Assembly (NCBI GenBank): GCA_947462765.1
Contig: CANHQK010000004.1
Location: forward strand, 11,206-75,205
Direction of reading: 5' to 3'
Length of the DNA: 64,000 nucleotides
From: Bdellovibrionales bacterium
GTDB taxonomy: Bacteria; Bdellovibrionota; UBA1018; CAIMNF01
In this document: positions 4,403-34,514 of the stretch, piece after piece
Layout of the letters: each line of letters opens with the position of its first letter
How positions within the stretch are numbered: position 1 is the first letter of the stretch
The notes under the pieces: generated by a model
Told to the model about the DNA's origin: nothing
What the model saw: only the letters and a program-made list of their open reading frames with translations
Database searches by the model: none
Translations under genes and position numbers: made by a program

Positions 4403-5209
4403 TCAGGCTCCGCCGTCGGCACTGCCCATGCCCGCACGGAAATCGGCGGCGAGGGCGGCCTTCAGGTATTCCTGCTTCATGATCGCGATGTTCTGGATCG
4501 AGATCTTCTTCGGACAAGCGGCTTCACACTCCTGCAAATTGGAGCAACTGCCGAATCCTTCCTTGTCCATCTGATCGACCATCCGGATCACGCGGCGCTT
4601 GCGGTCGGCCTGACCTTGCGGCAGGAGCGCGAGCTGAGTGATCTTCGCGGAGGTGAAGAGCGAAGCCGATGCGTTCGGACAAGCCGCCACACAGGCACCG
4701 CAGCCGATACAAGCCGCGGCGTCCATCGCCCGATCGGCCAGATCTTTCGGGATCAGGATCGCATTGGCATCGGCATGAGGACCCGTCTTAGCACCGGTGT
4801 AACCACCGGCCATCTGGATGCGGTCGAAAGCACGACGATCGGTCACGAGATCGCGGATCACCGGAAAGGCCTTGGCTCTCCAAGGCTCGATCGTGATGGT
4901 TTCCCCGTCGGTGAAAGCGCGCATGTAGAGCTGGCAAGTGGTGGCTCCGCGGACCGGACCGTGCGCCTGACCCTGGACCATCAAAGAGCAGGTACCGCAA
5001 ATCCCCTCGCGGCAGTCACTCTCGAACTCCAGCGGGCGCTTACCGCTCTTGATGATCTGCTCGTTCAGAACATCGAGCATCTCCAGGAAAGACATGTCGG
5101 TGAGCACGTTTTTCAACTCGTGCTCCTCGAAGAAGCCCTGGGCTTCACGGGATTCCTGTCTCCAAACACGCAAACGGACATTGATGGTTTTCGATTGGGA
5201 AGCGCTCAT
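4403..5209 (-). CDS. sdhB: Succinate dehydrogenase/fumarate reductase iron-sulfur subunit
   Basis: Cys clusters CREGICGTCS (2Fe-2S), CIGCGACVAACP and CxxxxECEAACP (4Fe-4S/3Fe-4S). Sits 3' of the flavoprotein gene; its first codon overlaps the sdhA stop. Confidence 0.9.
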   Translation of the reverse strand: MSASQSKTINVRLRVWRQESREAQGFFEEHELKNVLTDMSFLEMLDVLNEQIIKSGKRPLEFESDCREGICGTCSLMVQGQAHGPVRGATTCQLYMRAFTDGETITIEPWRAKAFPVIRDLVTDRRAFDRIQMAGGYTGAKTGPHADANAILIPKDLADRAMDAAACIGCGACVAACPNASASLFTSAKITQLALLPQGQADRKRRVIRMVDQMDKEGFGSCSNLQECEAACPKKISIQNIAIMKQEYLKAALAADFRAGMGSADGGA

Positions 5210-7940: not shown

Positions 7941-8861
7941 ATGCTGAGCCCGATGCTCATCGACCAGATCAACCTGAACCAGCTTCGTGTTTTCGAGTCG
8001 GTGTACCGCACCAAAAGCATGACACGGGCCGCAAAAGAGCTGCATCTCACCCAATCGGGCGTTAGTCAGCACATCAAGGCACTCGAGGAGGTCCTCGAGC
8101 TGAAGCTCTTCGATCGGATCAAACAGAAGTTAGTCGCGACTCCGGCCGCCCGGGAACTCTACCAGCACACCTCGAAAAGCTTCGAATACATCGAAACCAC
8201 GCTGAACCGCCTGAAGAACACGGACAAGGAATTGGCCGGTCTGGTGTCGATCGGGGTTCCGATTGAATTCGGGAACAACGTGATCATTCCGATGCTCGCG
8301 GAGTTCCAGAAGAAGAATCCCAAAGTCCGGTTCAAAATCCGTCAAGGATTCGCCTTCGAAATGAACCACCACTTGATGAGCGGAGAACTGGACTTCGCCT
8401 TCGTCGATTCGTTTTCTCTCGACAAAGGCATCAAGACCGAGGCGGTTTACGACGAAGTCCTCGAGCTCTGCATCTCCAAAAAGACCCAACTCCCGCAGAA
8501 GCCCCAAGCGGACTATGCCTTCTTCGAAAAACTGTCCTATGTGGATTACCAGGAGGATCAATCCGTCCTGAGCCTCTGGATGAGACACCACTTCGACGTT
8601 CGTAATCCCGAACTTGATGTGCGGGTGTACATCACCGACGCCCAAGCGGTGTCGAAGCTCATCCTGAACCAAGTCGGAGCCGGAATCCTCCCGGGTCACC
8701 TGGCTCAAAAGCTCCTGAACCGCGGTGAAGATCTTTTGGTCCTGAAAGGCGGGTCTTCGCCACTCCTGAACACCATCAGCATCGCACACCTCGAGGATAA
8801 AACCCTCACCACCGCCGGAAAAGCCATCCTGAACCATTTACGAAGCCAACTGAAGCGCTGA
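7941..8861 (+). CDS. LysR-family transcriptional regulator
   Basis: N-terminal LysR HTH: NLNQLRVFESVYRTKSMTRAAKELHLTQSGVSQHIKALEEVLELKLFDR. Divergent from sdhCAB. Confidence 0.9.
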   Translation: MLSPMLIDQINLNQLRVFESVYRTKSMTRAAKELHLTQSGVSQHIKALEEVLELKLFDRIKQKLVATPAARELYQHTSKSFEYIETTLNRLKNTDKELAGLVSIGVPIEFGNNVIIPMLAEFQKKNPKVRFKIRQGFAFEMNHHLMSGELDFAFVDSFSLDKGIKTEAVYDEVLELCISKKTQLPQKPQADYAFFEKLSYVDYQEDQSVLSLWMRHHFDVRNPELDVRVYITDAQAVSKLILNQVGAGILPGHLAQKLLNRGEDLLVLKGGSSPLLNTISIAHLEDKTLTTAGKAILNHLRSQLKR

Positions 8862-26903: not shown

Positions 26904-29276
26904 TTAACCCTTCCGAGGGGGCTTTGTCGAATCCTCGGGCCCGTCCAGAAGAGCGAACTCCACTCTCCGCTGGTCCAAGTCGACCGAAACCACCCGGATC
27001 ATCACTTTCATCCCGATGGTGAAGGTCCGCTTTTTCTTGCGGCCCGCCAGAATCATCCGCTCTTCGTTGAATTCGTACCAATCGTCTTTCATGCTGTCGA
27101 CCGGAACCATCCCCTCGCAGTAGGGGTGCCAGAGCTGGATGAACATGCCCTTGTCGGTCAATCCGTTCACCTTGCCCTCGAACTCTCCGCCGAGATTCTT
27201 TGCCATCATTCTCAGCTGCTTGAAACGAATCGATTCCCGCTCGGCATCGCTGGCAATCCGCTCCCGATAACTGCAGTGTTCGGCCATCTCCTCAAGGCGG
27301 TTCTGGGAGGCTTCAGCATCTTTACCTGTAGGATGACGTTGCTTCTGGTTTTCCCGGTGGAGGGTTGCCCGGAGCAGGCGATGAACAATCAAATCGGGAT
27401 ATCGACGGATCGGTGAGGTGAAGTGGGTGTAACCCTCGGAGGCCAATCCGTAATGCTCCCCATGGGACGCACTGTAAATGGCTTGGCGCATAGAACGCAA
27501 AAGCGCAGTTGCCAGAACCGGCTCTGCCGGGTGCTCGCGGAGGCCCCGGATGAAGGCTGCCAGGATGGGGGGTCTGGGGATCCCCTGATCCCGACCGCTC
27601 AAAGCGACTCCCATGTTCCGCGAAAGCTTTCTGAACTTTTCGATCGCCTCCATCGAGGGTTCTTCGTGAATCCGGTAAACAAAGGGGAGCTTCCGCTCCA
27701 TCATCCACTCCGTCACGGACTCGTTGGCCGCAATCATGAACTCCTCGATCAGGCGATGGGCGTCATTTCTCTCCCTGACCACGATATCACTCGGCTCTCC
27801 GGACTTCTCGTCGAGAATGATCTCGCTTTCCGGGAAGTCAAAATCAATCGAGCCCCGTTCATGCCGGGCCTTCTTCAGAATCCGGTACAGTTCGAACAGA
27901 TCTTTGTGCCGGGGGTCTTCTTTTTCGGCTTCAATCTCGGTGTAGGTCGACCTCCGCCTCGATTCGATGATGGCATCATAGAGCCGGATCTCGCCCTTCT
28001 CTCCCTCGCGCGTGTAGTCAATGGAACAAGCCATCGACAGGCGGGGAACGTGGGGCTTCAAGGAACAAAGCTCCTCCGACAAGGCCCGCGGAAGCATATG
28101 AAAGGCCCGCTCGGGGAAATACACCGAAGTCGCACGGGCATAGGCCTCGGCGTCGAGAGCGGTTCCCTCTTTCACATAATGGGAAACATCGGCAATCGCC
28201 ACCCATAGCCGGTAGCCATGGTGCTCGAGGCGCTCGACATAAACAGCGTCATCGAAATCCCGGGCCCGCTCTCCGTCAATGGTGAAGAAGGGAATGTGCC
28301 GGAGATCCGTCCGACCGATCTCGTCTTTCCCAGGAATCTCGAGCCGGAAACTCTCCGCTTCCTTGACCGCATCGAAGGTGTGGTGTTCCTTAAGATTGAA
28401 CTCCCCGGCCACCATCTGAATATCGTAACTTGCCGGAAGCGTGGGACCGATCCGCTCGAGAATCTTGGCAGTCGTCATGCCATTGTCCCCGAACACCATC
28501 TCAGCGCGGACCCAGTCGCCCTCTTGAACCTCGACCGGCACGGAGGGGAGGTAAACCTCCTCTTTTGCCTTCTTCCGCTCATAAACCAAGTGTCCGGTAC
28601 GGGCTTTCTGCTTGGTTTTCTTGAACTCTTTCCCGAATACGTGACCGTCTCCGAGGGCGACCTTTCCAAAAATCTCCTTGAACCGGTGCTCCAGTACTTT
28701 CAGGTCCTCGATCTCACCCTGCTCACTGACATACACCTCCACCCGATCCCCGTGAAAAAGCTGGTCAACATAGTACCGGGGAATGAACAGATCCTCGAGG
28801 TCGGCACGGTCAAAGACCAGGAAAGCCGATCCACGCTTGTTCTTATCCACGACTCCTTTGAGCCGCATCCAGGAGGGATCCGGCTCGGGACGGGACGGAC
28901 CACGCCCCTTTTTCTTCAATTCGTTACGTTCTTTACGACCCCACTCGCGATGGGGCCCACGACCGGGCTTACCTCCTGGTCTACCTCCTGGTCTACCTCC
29001 TGGCCTATCCCCCGACTTTCCTCCGAAGCGACCCTCGGGACGCTTGCCGGAGCGCTCGGTGAATTTACCTTCGGACCTACCCGCCGGTTTACCGCCCCAG
29101 GGCGACTCCTTCCTGGGTTCGATCCGGGTTCTTTGATCTCTCGGCTTCGAGTCTGCGGCTTTCTGGTCTCCGCCCTTCTTCACCGCTTTTTTGTCGTCTT
29201 TTTTGTCGGTCTTTTTATCGTCACGCTTGCCGACAACATGAGCCTTCCCGGAGCGGTCGTAGAAAACTTTTGACAT
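26904..29276 (-). CDS. rnr: Ribonuclease R with an N-terminal lysine/arginine-rich extension
   Basis: RNB catalytic motifs (DFDDAVYVERLE, ...SPIRRYPDLIVHR) and a C-terminal S1 domain. A ~130-aa basic, low-complexity N-terminus (KKTDKKDDKKAVKK...GRPGGRPGGRPGGKPG) is unusual. Confidence 0.9.
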   Translation of the reverse strand: MSKVFYDRSGKAHVVGKRDDKKTDKKDDKKAVKKGGDQKAADSKPRDQRTRIEPRKESPWGGKPAGRSEGKFTERSGKRPEGRFGGKSGDRPGGRPGGRPGGKPGRGPHREWGRKERNELKKKGRGPSRPEPDPSWMRLKGVVDKNKRGSAFLVFDRADLEDLFIPRYYVDQLFHGDRVEVYVSEQGEIEDLKVLEHRFKEIFGKVALGDGHVFGKEFKKTKQKARTGHLVYERKKAKEEVYLPSVPVEVQEGDWVRAEMVFGDNGMTTAKILERIGPTLPASYDIQMVAGEFNLKEHHTFDAVKEAESFRLEIPGKDEIGRTDLRHIPFFTIDGERARDFDDAVYVERLEHHGYRLWVAIADVSHYVKEGTALDAEAYARATSVYFPERAFHMLPRALSEELCSLKPHVPRLSMACSIDYTREGEKGEIRLYDAIIESRRRSTYTEIEAEKEDPRHKDLFELYRILKKARHERGSIDFDFPESEIILDEKSGEPSDIVVRERNDAHRLIEEFMIAANESVTEWMMERKLPFVYRIHEEPSMEAIEKFRKLSRNMGVALSGRDQGIPRPPILAAFIRGLREHPAEPVLATALLRSMRQAIYSASHGEHYGLASEGYTHFTSPIRRYPDLIVHRLLRATLHRENQKQRHPTGKDAEASQNRLEEMAEHCSYRERIASDAERESIRFKQLRMMAKNLGGEFEGKVNGLTDKGMFIQLWHPYCEGMVPVDSMKDDWYEFNEERMILAGRKKKRTFTIGMKVMIRVVSVDLDQRRVEFALLDGPEDSTKPPRKG
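28961..29010. repeat. Short in-frame tandem repeat (12-nt unit, ~3.5 copies) inside rnr
   Basis: Plus strand ACCTCCTGGTCT ACCTCCTGGTCT ACCTCCTGGCCT, encoding GRPGG RPGG RPGG on the minus strand. Confidence 0.8.
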
Positions 29277-29336: not shown

Positions 29337-30299
29337 ATGTGGTCACTGGCCAGAGCGCTCCTTTTTTTGATTCCTGCAGAAGAAGCTCACGGAGTGGGCA
29401 AGGTGCTGATGCGCATGCTCGCCAGGTTCATTCCCGCCCCTCGAAAGATCCAAAACAACCCGATCGGGGTGGCGGCCGGGTTCGATAAGAACGCAGAGCT
29501 GCTCGATGTACTCCCCAAGTTCGGGTTCGGTCATGCAGAGATCGGAACCGTAACCCCGAAACCCCAGGGCGGAAATCCCCGCCCCCGCCTCTTTCGAAAC
29601 AAAGAGGACCGGACACTGTTCAACCGCATGGGTTTCAACAATCTCGGAGCAGGCATCATCTCGGATCGCGTCCGGAAAATCCGACCAAGACTCCCCGAGG
29701 GCTTCAAGGTCGGAATCAATCTCGGTAAAAACAAAGACACTCCGGATGCACTCGCCGCTGAGGACTACGCAAAAGCGGCCCACCCCTTTCTCGACACGGC
29801 CGACTACTTCGTCATCAACGTCAGCTCACCGAATACGCCGGGACTCCGGGCCCTTCAAACCCCCGAAGCCCTGCTTCCCATCCTGAACCGGGTCCGCTCA
29901 GAGATCCAAACCTCAGGAAGAACCATCCCACTTTGGGTCAAACTGGCACCCGAACTGACCGGTCCCGACCTTCGCCAACTGATCGAAACCCTCGACCGGG
30001 GAGGCGCATCCGGCTTTATCCTCACCAATACCCAGGGCGGCGTCTATATAGATGAGGGCCAGGAGCTGACCGGTGGGTGGAGTGGGCAAAATCTGACCAG
30101 CCTTTCCCGGCAACGGCTGGAAGAAGTGCGCACCTACACTTCACTTCCCCTGATTTCGGTCGGTGGGATCATGACACCCGAAGAAGCGGTCCGACGCCTC
30201 CGGGCGGGGGCTTCTGAGATCCAGCTCTATACCGGATTCGTCTATGGCGGGCCCTTTTTGATCCGGAACATCCTGAAAGCGGTCCGCAAACCGCACTGA
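29337..30299 (+). CDS. pyrD: Dihydroorotate dehydrogenase (quinone), class 2
   Basis: N-terminal membrane-association helix, then NPIGVAAGFDKNAE, GFGHAEIGTVTPKPQGGNPRPRLFR and NRMGFNN. Typical class-2 PyrD. Confidence 0.9.
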   Translation: MWSLARALLFLIPAEEAHGVGKVLMRMLARFIPAPRKIQNNPIGVAAGFDKNAELLDVLPKFGFGHAEIGTVTPKPQGGNPRPRLFRNKEDRTLFNRMGFNNLGAGIISDRVRKIRPRLPEGFKVGINLGKNKDTPDALAAEDYAKAAHPFLDTADYFVINVSSPNTPGLRALQTPEALLPILNRVRSEIQTSGRTIPLWVKLAPELTGPDLRQLIETLDRGGASGFILTNTQGGVYIDEGQELTGGWSGQNLTSLSRQRLEEVRTYTSLPLISVGGIMTPEEAVRRLRAGASEIQLYTGFVYGGPFLIRNILKAVRKPH

Positions 30300-30310
30300 G
30301 CGACAAAAAA

Positions 30311-30356
30311 AGGCAAAAAAAAACCCCGGACTCGCGTCCGGGGCTCTTTTGCTTTT
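30311..30356. terminator. Bidirectional rho-independent terminator
   Basis: A9 tract, then stem CCCCGGAC / GTCCGGGG with loop TCGC, then CTCTTTTGCTTTT. This gives a U-tract in both orientations. It terminates pyrD (+) and the mini-ORF (-). Confidence 0.8.
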
Positions 30357-30369
30357 CGCTTAGAAAAAG

Positions 30370-30441
30370 TTATTTCTTAGCTTTTTTCTTAGCAACTTTT
30401 TTCTTAGCAGTCTTCTTTTTCGCTACTTTTTTCTTAGCCAT
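30370..30441 (-). CDS. Mini-ORF encoding a 23-aa lysine-repeat peptide MAKKKVAKKKTAKKKVAKKKAKK
   Basis: Minus-strand ATG at 30441 with a textbook SD (GGAGGA, 8 nt spacer) and a TAA stop 11 nt before the bidirectional terminator. Below the 60-aa ORF-track cutoff. (A/V)KKK x5 periodicity. Confidence 0.5.
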   Translation of the reverse strand: MAKKKVAKKKTAKKKVAKKKAKK

Positions 30442-30466
30442 TTTAGTTTTCCTCCATTGTGAATTT

Positions 30467-30480
30467 ATTGCCTAGGCAAT
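30467..30480. promoter_or_regulatory. Perfect 14-bp palindrome ATTGCCTAGGCAAT upstream of the mini-ORF
   Basis: The sequence is its own reverse complement. It lies 26-39 nt upstream of the mini-ORF start codon, where an operator or promoter element would sit. Confidence 0.45.
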
Positions 30481-30674
30481 TACTTCTTAAATCCGATGTT
30501 ACAACGCTTCCTGATTACTTCAAGCGGATAATGAAATTTTTTTTGAAATTTTTTCTTAAGTCATGAGCGACACACTCCGAAGTGTGTAGTGAGCGCCTTA
30601 ATCGGGTCACGGATTGACCCTCAAACTCGGGTGCTCTGATGTGAAAAGTGAGTTTGACCTTCATGGAGGAAGGT

Positions 30675-31520
30675 ATGGGATTACGAATCAACACGAACGT
30701 GCCCTCTCTGGTTGCTCAACGCAACCTCCGCGGTAATCGGCAATTGCTCGACCGTACTCTTGAACGCCTGAGTTCAGGTTCGAGAATCAATCATGCCGGT
30801 GACGATGCTGCGGGACTCGCCATTTCAGAAACCCTCCGGGCGCAGATCCGCGGAATCTCCCAAGCGGAACGGAATGCCCAAGACGGCATCTCGCTCGTCC
30901 AAGTGGCCGAAGGCGGCCTGGTCGAGGTTTCGAACATCCTGATTCGGATGCGAGAGCTCGGCGTCCAAGCCTCTTCAGACACCGTCGGAACCCGCGAACG
31001 CGGCTTCCTCAACAATGAATTCCAGCAACTTTCCGAGGAAATCGACCGGATTGCAAACTCGATCGAGTTCAACGGCAACCCCCTCCTGAACGGGAACGGG
31101 AGCGCTTTCGAAGTCCAGATCGGGACCAAGAACAATCCACTCGTCGACCGGATCAAGCTCTTCGATCCGTACGCTTCGAACGTGAACCTGGTCTCCCTCG
31201 GGATCAACCTGTCCTCGGTCGCCGACAAAACGAGCGCCCAGAACAGTCTGGCCAGCATCGATCAGGCCCTGAACACCGTGACTTCGATCCGGGCGGGCTT
31301 CGGTTCCATGCAGAACCGACTCCAGTCGGTGATCAACAATTTAACTGTGAACAAAGAGAACATGATGGCGGCCAACAGCCGGATCCGGGATGCGGACCTC
31401 GCGGAGGAAACCTCCGAGATGACCAAAGCCCAGATCCTGAACCAAGCCGGCGTATCAGTCCTCGCCCAAGCCAACTCTTCCATCAAGAGTGCCCTCGGGC
31501 TCCTGGGAGGACAGGCATAG
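30675..31520 (+). CDS. fliC: Flagellin (short-form, ~281 aa), paralogue 1
   Basis: MGLRINTNVPSLVAQRNL...LSSGSRINHAGDDAAGLAISE (conserved D0/D1 N-terminus) and the C-terminal LAEETSEMTKAQILNQAGVSVLAQANS...LLG. SD GGAGGAAGG before ATG 30675. Confidence 0.95.
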   Translation: MGLRINTNVPSLVAQRNLRGNRQLLDRTLERLSSGSRINHAGDDAAGLAISETLRAQIRGISQAERNAQDGISLVQVAEGGLVEVSNILIRMRELGVQASSDTVGTRERGFLNNEFQQLSEEIDRIANSIEFNGNPLLNGNGSAFEVQIGTKNNPLVDRIKLFDPYASNVNLVSLGINLSSVADKTSAQNSLASIDQALNTVTSIRAGFGSMQNRLQSVINNLTVNKENMMAANSRIRDADLAEETSEMTKAQILNQAGVSVLAQANSSIKSALGLLGGQA

Positions 31521-31776
31521 GAGATGAAAGTTTAATCTAGACGGTGGCGTTGCCTCGTCTGTTTCCTGGATCGATCCACCCCCCAGCTCCTGATGAGAGG
31601 AACTCGGAGGGAACCGGGGGGGATCGAAAGGAAAGGTTCGAAAAACAAGTTTTAACCGTGAACTGTCCGGTTTGTGAGGACCGGGTGGGACACACCAGAA
31701 AATCGGCATGGATTGCCGGCCGCGGATTTGGTCGTCTGCGGGTGATCATGGAGGACGCTTTTTATGGATGGATAGT

Positions 31777-32610
31777 ATGGGACTTAGAGTCAACACGAAT
31801 ATTTCTTCGCTGGTCGCCCAGCGGAGCTTAAATGGAACCCGGGCCTCGCTCAGTAAGAACATGGAGAGGCTCGCCTCGGGAAGCCGGATCAACACAGCCG
31901 GCGATGATGCCGCAGGACTGGCGATCTCGGAAAACCTCAGGGCACAAGTCCGTGGCCTCAAGCAGGCCAAGCGGAACGCCCAAGACGGGGTCTCCTTGAT
32001 CCAGGTCTCCGAAGGGGGACTCAATGAAGTGACGAACATCCTGATCCGCCTCCGTGAATTGGCCATCCAATCGGCCTCGGACACGGTGGGCGACCGGGAA
32101 CGGAGCTTCACCGACCGCGAATTCCAGGCCTTGAAGTCTGAGGTGGACCGGATCGCGATGAGCACCAACTTCAACGGAACGCCTCTCCTGAACGGACGGG
32201 CGGGGATCTTCGAGATCCAGGTCGGTACCGGAAACAACCCCCTGACGGACAGAATCGTGTACGACGGTCAGAACGCAGACATCTCACTTGAGGCGCTGCG
32301 GATGACTGGTGAGAGTGTGGCCACGAAACAAGGGTCCCAACTCACTCTGTCGGTGATCGACGATGCGATCTCACAGGTCAGCAAGGTTCGCTCCGATCTC
32401 GGCGCAATGCAAAACAGGCTTCAATCTACGATCAACAACCTCGCCGTAAACGAGGAAAACATGACGGCTGCCAACAGCCGGATCCGGGACGCTGATCTTG
32501 CCGAAGAGGTCTCGGAAATGACGAAGAACAACATTCTCATGCAAGCGGGGATCTCGGTCTTGGGTCAGGCGAACAGCGCAGCCCAGTCCGCATTGAAACT
32601 CCTCGGTTGA
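31777..32610 (+). CDS. fliC: Flagellin, paralogue 2 (277 aa)
   Basis: MGLRVNTNISSLVAQRSL...GSRINTAGDDAAGLAISENLRAQVRGL...EVSEMTKNNILMQAGISVLGQANS. Start placed at the MGLRVNTN ATG rather than the upstream ORF-track start. Confidence 0.95.
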   Translation: MGLRVNTNISSLVAQRSLNGTRASLSKNMERLASGSRINTAGDDAAGLAISENLRAQVRGLKQAKRNAQDGVSLIQVSEGGLNEVTNILIRLRELAIQSASDTVGDRERSFTDREFQALKSEVDRIAMSTNFNGTPLLNGRAGIFEIQVGTGNNPLTDRIVYDGQNADISLEALRMTGESVATKQGSQLTLSVIDDAISQVSKVRSDLGAMQNRLQSTINNLAVNEENMTAANSRIRDADLAEEVSEMTKNNILMQAGISVLGQANSAAQSALKLLG

Positions 32611-32622
32611 TGAAAAAGAAAC

Positions 32623-32650
32623 TCCCCGGGGTGGCACTGCCCCCCGGGGA
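32623..32650 (+). terminator. GC-rich stem-loop after flagellin 2 (no U-tract)
   Basis: TCCCCGGGG (10-nt loop) CCCCGGGGA, a 9-bp perfect stem. It is followed by CTAAACC, not a T-run, so it is a hairpin of uncertain terminator function. Confidence 0.4.
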
Positions 32651-32736
32651 CTAAACCAAAACGGCAAGGATGCTGTCTGCACATCAAGGAACGTGTGCGG
32701 ATCTTAGGGAGAAGAAGAATATGAACGGAGGCTGAT

Positions 32737-33570
32737 ATGGGTTTAAGAATCAATACCAATCTCTCGGCGCTGGCGTCGATGAGGACCTTGTCGAATACGA
32801 AACACGCCCTGGATGGGTCGCTTGAGCGACTCGCTAGCGGCAACCGGATCAACCGCGCCGGAGACGACGCGGCCGGATTGGCGATCTCGGAGAACCTGCG
32901 GGCACAAATCCGCGGACTCAGGCAGGCCAAGCGGAATGCCCAGGACGGGGTCTCCTTGATCCAGGTCACCGAAGGCGGCCTGAACGAGATCTCGAACATG
33001 ATCGTCCGGCTCCGCGAACTGGCGATCCAGGCGGCATCGGATACGATCGGCGACAAGGAGCGGTCCTTCACTGACCGCGAATTCCAGGCGCTGAAATCCG
33101 AGATCCAACGGGTGGCCGATTCGACGAACTTCAACGGGAACCCCCTGTTGAACGGCCGGGCGGGAATCTTCGAGTTCCAGGTAGGAATCCACAACAATCC
33201 GGTTTCGGACCGGATCGTTTACAATGCCGAAAACGCGAACGTCTCACTCGAATCGCTCGGCATGGTGGGAGAGAGTGTCTCCACGAAGATCGGAGCGCAG
33301 ACCACGCTCGCGGTCCTGGACGACGCCCTCATGCGGGTCAACTCGGTCCGCGCCGACCTCGGAGCCGTTCAAAACCGGATGCAATCGACCATCAACTCGC
33401 TCGCCATCAGCGACGAGAACCTCTCGGCCGCCAACAGCCGGATTCGGGATGCGGATCTCGCACAAGAGGTGTCCGAGATGACCAAAAACAACATCCTGAT
33501 GCAGGCCGGTGTTTCCGTCCTGGGTCAAGCGAACCAGACCTCACAGTCTGCACTGAAACTCCTGAGCTAG
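32737..33570 (+). CDS. fliC: Flagellin, paralogue 3 (277 aa)
   Basis: MGLRINTNLSALASMRTL...GNRINRAGDDAAGLAISENLRAQIRGL. Closer to paralogue 2 than to paralogue 1, with long identical blocks such as RNAQDGVSLIQV.EGGLNE and RDADLA.EVSEMTKNNILMQAG.SVLGQAN. Confidence 0.95.
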   Translation: MGLRINTNLSALASMRTLSNTKHALDGSLERLASGNRINRAGDDAAGLAISENLRAQIRGLRQAKRNAQDGVSLIQVTEGGLNEISNMIVRLRELAIQAASDTIGDKERSFTDREFQALKSEIQRVADSTNFNGNPLLNGRAGIFEFQVGIHNNPVSDRIVYNAENANVSLESLGMVGESVSTKIGAQTTLAVLDDALMRVNSVRADLGAVQNRMQSTINSLAISDENLSAANSRIRDADLAQEVSEMTKNNILMQAGVSVLGQANQTSQSALKLLS

Positions 33571-33578
33571 ACCAACTG

Positions 33579-33633
33579 AAAGGCGGGATCGACCTAAGAC
33601 CAAAGGCACGATCCCGCCTTTCGCCGTTTTCTT
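33579..33633 (+). terminator. Rho-independent terminator after the flagellin array
   Basis: 13-bp perfect stem AAAGGCGGGATCG / CGATCCCGCCTTT (17-nt loop) followed by CGCCGTTTTCTT. Confidence 0.7.
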
Positions 33634-33644
33634 GGAGACACAAG

Positions 33645-34514
33645 ATGAGTGAAAAGAGAATCCTGATCGTCGGCGGCAGCGGGTTTGTCGGATGGAACCT
33701 CGCCTCCCTGCTCTCGAGAACCTATCCGGTGACCTTGACCTGGAATCGATCTCTCACCCCCCATCCCCGGGCGGCAACCGTTCAGTTTGGCGGCCTGCAC
33801 GACAAGGATGCTTGCGTATCTTTGGTTCAACAACTCAATCCGACCGTGGTGATCTATACCACCGGGATTTCCGACCCGGTTCGCGCCGAAAAAGACCCGG
33901 CCACTATGATGCTCACTCACACCAACGGTGCGAATCACATGCTGATCGCCGCCGACTACATCAAGGCCAAGTCCATCTTCATCTCTTCCGACTATGTGTT
34001 TGCCGGCATCGAAGGCAATTACCGCGAGTCCGACACGACCATTCCCTTCAATGCCCTCGGAAAAGCCAAACTCTCCGCGGAGAATTTCATCCGCAGCCGC
34101 TCACTCAATCATGTGGTGATCCGCTGCGCTCCACTTCTAGGTCGAGGCACCCTCGATCACCCGTCCTGGCTCGACCGACTCAGGGATCCCGCTCTTCCGG
34201 CAAAAAAAATCACCCTCTCCAGAAAGCAGGTTCACAATCCGGTTCACATCCGCGAGCTTGCAACCGCCATTGACCGGATCCTTCAGTATGACATCCGGAA
34301 CAAAGTCATCCACCTCGGAGGACTCACCCGGATTTCAGAATATGATCTCGCCATGAAATTCCTGGAGCGCTTCGGCCTCACCCGAGAGCACGTGGCCCCG
34401 TTCGACTCGGTCCTCGAATACCAGTACCAGGATTACTCGCTGAACTTCACCCAGAGCCTGAGATTACTCAAGACTGAGGCCTTGCTCCTGGAGCAAAGCT
34501 TTGATCTGCTCTAG
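33645..34514 (+). CDS. NAD(P)-dependent epimerase/reductase of the SDR superfamily (RmlD-like)
   Basis: Rossmann motif ILIVGGSGFVGWNL. ~289 aa, with RmlD/extended-SDR-like organisation. Sits immediately downstream of the flagellin array. Confidence 0.65.
   Translation: MSEKRILIVGGSGFVGWNLASLLSRTYPVTLTWNRSLTPHPRAATVQFGGLHDKDACVSLVQQLNPTVVIYTTGISDPVRAEKDPATMMLTHTNGANHMLIAADYIKAKSIFISSDYVFAGIEGNYRESDTTIPFNALGKAKLSAENFIRSRSLNHVVIRCAPLLGRGTLDHPSWLDRLRDPALPAKKITLSRKQVHNPVHIRELATAIDRILQYDIRNKVIHLGGLTRISEYDLAMKFLERFGLTREHVAPFDSVLEYQYQDYSLNFTQSLRLLKTEALLLEQSFDLL

Follow-up and report, generated by a model that had tools for sequence, protein, structure and literature searches.

Can a reading frame of 23 codons, composed of lysine-rich repeats, be a gene, and, if so, what would its product do? 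This question is raised by a 64-kb stretch of Bdellovibrionales DNA (64,000 nucleotides of contig CANHQK010000004.1, hereafter the window), in which such an ORF lies on the minus strand, convergent to pyrD.

The lysine-repeat ORF and its conservation

The ORF extends from an ATG at position 30441 to a TAA that ends at 30370 (minus strand, stop codon included) and encodes the 23-residue peptide MAKKKVAKKKTAKKKVAKKKAKK. Fourteen of the 23 residues are lysine (61%), and the computed pI and charge are 11.1 and about +13.5 to +14, respectively. The pentamer AKKK[V/T/A] occurs four times, Ala, Val and Thr are the only non-Lys residues, and the peptide consists of repeats throughout, without hydrophobic residues other than Ala and Val. 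A Shine-Dalgarno (SD) sequence, GGAGGA, is located at 30450-30455 on the same strand, 8 nt ahead of the ATG; both the lysine-repeat ORF and this SD are present as claimed in the original prediction for this DNA. When ORFs no shorter than 15 aa and with a Lys content of 45% or more were sought, this ORF was the sole case in the window, and none was found in 39 pyrD loci of other taxa (261 kb). Because the control loci contain no such ORF and the window contains one, the polylysine ORF is well past chance expectation.

Relatives were located by a PyrD scan at one genome per species, which recovered uncultured Bdellovibrionales, Oligoflexia and Bacteriovoracaceae with identities from 87% down to ~43%; PyrD matches more remote than these Bdellovibrionota relatives belong to other phyla. 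An equivalent ORF of 15-33 aa, built from AKKK[T/V/A] pentamers and convergent to pyrD, is found in 27 related Bdellovibrionota loci, a count that comprises the loci of the PyrD scan plus L084 and leaves out identical copies of the window's own scaffold. Examples downstream of pyrD are MAKKKAAKKKTAKKKTAKKKAKK, MATKKKATKKKATKKKTAKKKK and MAKRKKKKATKKKATKKRKTKKKTKKKTKRRKK. In L084, which derives from "Bdellovibrionota bacterium FG-1" (a name of the kind given to cultured isolates), the peptide is MATKKKATKKKATKKKATKKKTAKK and the ORF lies one gene farther from pyrD. A further 14 Bdellovibrionota-like loci have no mini-ORF within the available flank, and several of these end at a contig edge. One additional observation concerns L016 (JAGTJX010000001.1, 909 kb), which is publicly labelled Lysobacteraceae/Xanthomonadaceae and contains a Bdellovibrionota-type mini-gene, MAKKKAKKKTAKKKK, together with the family promoter described below. 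The PyrD of L016 is 52% identical to that of the window, and its taxonomic label may be mistaken.

The ATG, SD spacing, frame and stop codon are retained in 27 of the 27 loci, with GGAGG or a near variant 8-10 nt ahead of the ATG in all lineages. Across 22 peptide variants, the conserved positions are M1, A2 (Met-Ala start in 21 of the 22) and the Lys residues, which recur with a period of five; insertions and deletions comprise repeat units, and the lengths among relatives differ by whole pentamers. In 24 distinct coding sequences, the Lys codons are AAA (167) and AAG (163), AGA occurs once, and GAA, GAG, AAC and AAT do not occur. Apart from the single AGA, G is confined to codon position 3, and a pyrimidine is never present at position 3, hence the lack of Asn. 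Because the third position is purine-only and G is kept out of positions 1 and 2, the codon pattern indicates that lysine itself is under selection. Such a pattern fits lysine selection; neither an RNA motif of the ARN type nor a terminator flank rich in A would predict it.

These observations bear directly on the possibility that the locus has no peptide function, in which case the A/T runs would do no more than flank a terminator, or the transcript would function as RNA, for example as an (ARN)n Hfq-binding sRNA. The A-rich repeats do look like ARN motifs, the transcript would be small with a strong terminator, and Rfam returned sRNA and leader look-alikes; all of these are sub-threshold, and on this region they are terminator-driven only (the best reaches 23 bits, where the gathering score is 440). 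An RNA of the ARN or A-tract type does not, however, require a purine-only third position or the exclusion of G from positions 1 and 2, and the start, SD spacing, frame and stop codon preserved in every locus likewise argue against it. In addition, analogous mini-genes elsewhere share a polylysine product despite very different flanking composition. An explanation that dispenses with the peptide is consequently held to be very improbable. A hairpin conserved in relatives without the ORF had been proposed at the outset as the sign of mere terminator flanks; what is conserved, throughout the phylum, is instead the ORF along with its ATG, SD and lysine codons, in keeping with the original view of a genuine small gene. 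Judged by its sequence, the polylysine ORF is a real, conserved gene.

Transcription signals and genomic context

Alignment of 23 upstream regions revealed a predicted promoter ahead of the ORF. The −35 hexamer, TTGAAG (30518-30523, minus strand), has a TTG that is invariant in the 23 aligned lineages, and the −10 hexamer, TAACAT (30496-30501, minus strand), is preceded by a conserved G, GTAACAT being near-invariant. The spacer between the hexamers is exactly 16 nt in 25 of 25 loci with enough upstream flank, and the family pattern, TTGAnn-16 nt-TAACAT, is sigma-70-type. A generic promoter scan missed this element, which scores 8/12 against the E. coli consensus; it is called here, from sequence, because it is conserved across loci. 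The transcription start site (TSS) is predicted near 30489, which would give a 48-nt leader. Ahead of the −35 hexamer lies an A/T-rich tract (30528-30560, minus strand) that is A-rich at the same spot in nearly all 23 aligned regions; its composition is conserved and its sequence is not, and it may represent an UP element. This promoter type occurs once in the window.

The −35 region also tends to be repeated, in inverted form, toward the spacer's 3′ end (30497-30527, minus strand). Equivalent spacer inverted repeats are observed in L019, L021, L031 and L028. Across the window and these loci the sequences differ by lineage, the examples being CGCTT/AAGCG, TTGATCT/AGATCAA, TTGATT/AATCAA and, twice, ATCGAT. 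The inverted repeat is weakly enriched over shuffles, with a mean z of +1.1 across lineages that are related.

Between promoter and ORF lies the perfect 14-bp palindrome ATTGCCTAGGCAAT, which was originally proposed to be a promoter or repressor site. Its perfection, its length and its distance of 26-39 nt upstream of the ATG are as first described, and only the end coordinate requires correction, since the palindrome occupies 30467-30480 and the earlier value of 30481 is one base over. A 14-bp palindrome alone is nothing unusual; eight perfect examples are present in the window versus about four expected. The assignment to a promoter or repressor site does not hold, as the promoter seen in 25 of 25 loci lies upstream of the palindrome, which the predicted TSS precedes by about 10-23 nt. 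Because of this arrangement, the palindrome is predicted to be transcribed as a 5′UTR hairpin. In the fold of the predicted transcript, it supplies the inner stem and loop of a stem-loop at 30461-30486 (minus strand).

A leader hairpin whose first nucleotide falls between +1 and +9 and whose last lies 3-7 nt ahead of the SD is predicted in nearly all of 25 loci, two of which have little or no leader hairpin. The mean z against dinucleotide shuffles is −2.8, with 17 of the 25 loci below −2; the corresponding t-test gives a p of about 7e-9, although the lineages are related and this value therefore overstates independence. The stems themselves are unrelated in sequence: ATTGC/GCAAT, GTGTCAGG/CTGACAC with a UUCG loop, GGCGCC/GGCGCC, GGGAATTG/AGTTCCC and GTGACC/GGTCAC. 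Between the stems of L010 and L011, two double compensatory changes and two wobble-compatible changes are found, with zero disruptive ones. L006 has G in place of the palindrome's first A, a change that keeps a G·U pair in the RNA and breaks the symmetry of the DNA. The palindrome sequence is retained in close relatives only, and other lineages have unrelated hairpins in the same place. Alignment of ten 5′UTRs with MAFFT followed by RNAalifold gave no consensus structure, the hairpin sequences being unalignable; conservation of the hairpin is thus judged from per-sequence folding against shuffles and from the pairwise comparison of L010 and L011.

A role for the palindrome as a repressor operator was rejected based on its location downstream of the promoter, its lack of sequence conservation beyond close relatives and the asymmetry in L006. 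The data indicate that the palindrome is a structural 5′UTR stem-loop. Folding of the predicted transcript (178 nt) gives this 5′ hairpin, an SD and AUG that are both left unpaired, and a terminator (z of −3.7). Like 5′-terminal stem-loops that stabilise mRNA, the hairpin of the mini-gene would fall in the first few nucleotides of the transcript and leave the SD free. It differs from them in that its putative stabilising role is deduced from position, relative to a predicted TSS.

The intrinsic terminator is located at 30315-30350 (minus strand), with an extended stem from 30350 to 30317, a G+C core at 30324-30343 and then U9. The core hairpin, CCCCGGAC-TCGC-GTCCGGGG (30324-30343), is situated between A9 (30315-30323) and CTCTTTTGCTTTT. 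A consensus scan scores this hairpin as terminator-like on both strands, in agreement with the proposal that it serves pyrD as well as the mini-gene, and the minus strand scores far better (15 pairs plus the T run). The stop codon had been placed 11 nt from the terminator; the distance is actually 19 nt to the extended stem and 26 nt to the G+C core. Downstream of the stop codon, 25 of 25 loci have a strong hairpin, with a mean z of −4.2.

A run of codons for a single amino acid followed by a terminator is also the classic layout of an attenuator, and weak Rfam look-alikes of Thr and His leaders, far under threshold, were returned. The ORF could then be a cis-regulatory leader peptide in which attenuation or stalling at Lys codons controls a downstream gene, or pyrD by interference. 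Against this explanation, no co-directional gene comes next: read-through would cross 1 kb antisense to pyrD and then reach rnr on the minus strand. The downstream context also varies by lineage, as exemplified by the extra gene in L084 and L016. In the MFE and centroid structures of the predicted transcript, the two structures inspected, there is no helix that competes with the terminator. Regulation by a leader peptide is considered the least probable of all the alternatives weighed here.

The convergent neighbour, pyrD (29337-30299, plus strand; Pfam DHO_dh), encodes a quinone-dependent dihydroorotate dehydrogenase and is the sole broadly conserved synteny partner of the mini-gene. An identical pyrD sequence is present on a 301-kb freshwater metagenome scaffold, where the order is rnr, pyrD and flagellin array. 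Flagellin genes upstream of the mini-gene are restricted to the subclade whose PyrD identity is about 53% or more; in deeper lineages the mini-gene is flanked by unrelated neighbours, and no functional theme emerges among the neighbours across lineages. The earlier suggestion of a link to the flagellin leader region therefore describes an incidental adjacency, limited to the closest subclade. Membership in a flagellar regulon was likewise rejected, given this restricted adjacency and the absence of a sigma-28-like consensus near the mini-gene promoter.

Several other features of the window were observed. Four tandem flagellin genes of 277-300 aa each (30648-34514, plus strand) lie directly upstream of, and divergent from, the mini-gene. 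The RNase R homologue (26904-29276, minus strand) has an N-terminal extension of low complexity, about 130 aa long and rich in Lys, Arg and Gly (DKKTDKKDDKKAVKK..., GGRPGGRPGGKPG), which one gene caller trimmed to give 654 aa versus the 790-aa ORF. Three successive giant ORFs of 1796, 2169 and 2974 aa occupy 41534-62278 on the plus strand.

Similar mini-genes in other lineages

When metagenome and viral collections were scanned with degenerate DNA encoding M-A-(x)-KKK-x(1,2)-KKK, at least 240 matches were obtained. Among the 240 matches listed are 73 complete ORFs that do not exceed 45 aa and have a Lys content of 40% or higher; 45 of these 73 have an SD-like tetramer, compared with a rough chance estimate of about 13%. 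The Bdellovibrionota promoter is absent from all of these. Several form conserved families of their own in which the layout recurs, a poly-K/R ORF being preceded by a promoter, leader hairpin and SD and followed by a terminator.

The first such family is found on five soil metagenome contigs (L089, L093, L100, L184 and L201) and has a conserved TTGACT-N17-TATACA promoter. Its peptides are 12-14 aa long (MATKKKAKKKAKKK, MAAKKKAKKKKK, MATKKKAKKKKKH and others) and are encoded on the plus strand at L089:2492-2536, L093:1475-1513, L100:3472-3516 and L201:1404-1445, and on the minus strand in L184. Each locus combines a GGGAG SD and a strong terminator with two leader hairpins, the first of which varies in sequence from locus to locus. 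The neighbours of this family have N-termini that, on inspection by eye, resemble those of thiolase, RmuC and a UvrD-type helicase. A second, AT-rich family (L113 and L188, minus strand; MAKRRKAKKKGKKKAKKRRRR and MAKRKKAKKKTKAKKRKKARRR, with starts at reverse-complement offsets 1370 and 4340) repeats this arrangement, with a TTGACA-type promoter and a terminator as well as a leader hairpin, in a genome of unrelated type. In a G+C-rich lineage, tandem polybasic mini-ORFs are present at L085:~4920-5042 and L152:~8570-8688, where MPKRKKAVKKGGKKKATKKGKRK is followed about 50 nt on by MAKKKKAAKKKKK behind its own AGGAGG. Collectively, these families suggest repeated origins of stand-alone polylysine mini-genes, which annotation systematically misses.

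Finally, three phage-like viral contigs (L273, L304 and L318) encode 21-aa peptides, MAKKKKAKKKNKKKNKKKKKR and MAKKKKAKKKKRKLKKKKKSR, with good SDs at the end of the preceding ORF. These peptides may be DNA-condensing or packaging polycations.

The product and its candidate roles

The product is without a folded domain or hydrophobic core and cannot fold alone; it would have to bind a polyanion electrostatically. Six peptide variants had no match in Pfam, NCBIfam or PDB sequences at E values up to 10, and ten exact variant sequences, upstream-extended forms included, were absent from a collection of 15 billion proteins. The Pfam HC2 and Hc1 models were also unmatched by the six variants at E values up to 10, a test that is weakened by HMMER composition filters; low-complexity filters generally blunt homology tests on a lysine-repeat peptide. 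Literature searches on the peptide motif, on lysine-rich small Bdellovibrio proteins and on bacterial protamine-like proteins found nothing equivalent, and the polylysine mini-gene is previously unannotated. A computed trypsin digest of the des-Met peptide yields AK, K, VAK and TAK. With fragments of one to three residues, the peptide is therefore invisible to standard tryptic proteomics.

The reading ranked first, to which an even chance of being correct is assigned, is that of an abundant, domain-less polycation that binds nucleic acids as a minimal counterpart of Hc2 and BpH1. The histone-H1/Hc-like polycation proposed in the original prediction is thereby kept, by analogy, as the best functional guess. 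Hc2 and BpH1 are histone-H1-like proteins made of lysine-rich pentamers whose repeat number varies between relatives, and Hc2 condenses the nucleoid in the biphasic chlamydial cycle (PMC2848022). As in Hc2 (HctB) and BpH1, the polylysine peptide has consecutive five-residue units that combine basic residues with Ala, Val or Thr, a number of units that varies among relatives (15-33 aa) and repeats without acidic residues. A further parallel is that Hc2 works in a bacterium whose biphasic life cycle includes a stage with a condensed nucleoid (PMC2848022). In contrast, Hc2 is 165-237 aa long with a non-repeat terminal domain and two basic residues per pentamer, whereas the polylysine peptide is 15-33 aa long and consists of repeats only, with three Lys per pentamer. 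There is no detectable homology between the peptide and Hc2 or BpH1, and the DNA binding of the peptide is putative.

A second comparison can be drawn with protamines and protamine-like viral core proteins such as baculovirus P6.9, which are likewise short, near-purely basic and domain-less, and act by charge neutralisation and DNA condensation (PMC12159748, PMC6163548). They differ in being Arg-rich, eukaryotic or viral, and often regulated by phosphorylation, whereas the polylysine peptide is Lys-only and bacterial. No bacterial chromosomal equivalent of protamines was found in the literature searches.

For such a polycation, the gene would be monocistronic and probably strongly expressed. 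The sigma-70-type promoter and A-rich upstream tract would drive transcription of an RNA of ~175-178 nt, spanning roughly 30489 to 30315 (minus strand), in which the 5′ hairpin would be protective or structural and the strong SD would be left unpaired. Translation would yield the 23-aa peptide of AKKK[V/T/A] pentamers, and the transcript would end at the terminator held in common with pyrD. The peptide is proposed to diffuse and bind polyanions non-specifically, chiefly DNA and/or RNA, which would neutralise charge and promote condensation. The expression level, the nucleic-acid binding and a role in the compact nucleoid of predatory Bdellovibrionota are thus all putative, and a sigma-70-type promoter is a housekeeping promoter that says nothing on attack-phase induction. 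The polycation reading suits binding to the ribosome or RNA equally well as binding to DNA.

The reading ranked second, which is possible although doubtful, is that the peptide belongs to the ribosome, or associates with it, as a tiny, lineage-specific polybasic protein that fills an rRNA crevice or bridges rRNA helices. Precedent is provided by bL37, a 24-aa unannotated protein that was discovered only by cryo-EM (PMC5876184). Together with bS22, Thx and eL41, bL37 resembles the product described here in being 20-35 aa long, extremely basic, lineage-restricted, missed by annotation and proteomically elusive (PMC5876184), and size and charge therefore match. The strong promoter with its A-rich tract, the strong SD and the monocistronic layout are like those of highly expressed translation genes, and independent polybasic mini-genes occur in other lineages, one of them AT-rich. 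However, the established peptides have a fixed length, are non-repetitive and fit defined rRNA pockets, whereas the polylysine peptide is a pentamer repeat that varies from 15 to 33 aa by whole units, a periodic, low-complexity design that would be unusual in a fixed rRNA pocket. It also matches no ribosomal family or PDB ribosome chain, and linkage to ribosomal genes is absent in every lineage examined. Coating of a polyanion is favoured over a fixed rRNA pocket because of the variable length, the strict periodicity and the lack of position-specific residues.

Polylysine, protamine and similar polycations are said to disorganise LPS. In a predatory phylum, a cationic peptide could act on membranes or prey envelopes as an outer-membrane-permeabilising polycation during predation, and a membrane-active peptide was among the functions first suggested for this ORF. 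This idea finds no support in the peptide or its surroundings: no signal peptide, hydrophobic or amphipathic face, or adjacent transporter or processing genes are present in any lineage, and similar mini-genes occur in lineages not known as predatory. A role on membranes is judged to be quite improbable.

The nucleic-acid-binding polycation remains the preferred reading and connects to a known feature of the cell biology of Bdellovibrio. The attack-phase nucleoid is exceptionally compact, independent of transcription and translation, and further factors have been invoked (bioRxiv 10.1101/2025.09.24.678257, PMC8445325). Provided that B. bacteriovorus carries the gene, the peptide is a plausible candidate for a contributor to this compaction; searches with PyrD homologues toward cultured B. 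bacteriovorus returned uncultured relatives only. A broader and bolder proposal, which is considered unlikely, is that polylysine mini-genes constitute a widespread, overlooked class of bacterial protamine-like genes and that the Bdellovibrionota peptide is the missing attack-phase nucleoid factor, accounting for a density that, under this proposal, is explained by neither transcription and translation nor the histone Bd0055. Such a class would be overlooked because gene callers skip ORFs this short and trypsin leaves fragments of one to three residues.

If the peptide is made at the level implied by its signals, it would be an abundant polycation of about +14 that is unrecorded by annotation, protein databases and tryptic proteomes. 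The independently evolved mini-genes of this architecture, from soil and marine as well as viral metagenomic contigs, suggest that the phenomenon is general, and such generality would reveal a systematic blind spot in pipelines for small-ORF discovery. For Bdellovibrionota, an abundant polycation would have to enter accounts of nucleoid compaction, ribosome composition and polyanion balance, and, provided that the model species carries the gene, it would offer a concrete candidate for what compacts the attack-phase nucleoid.
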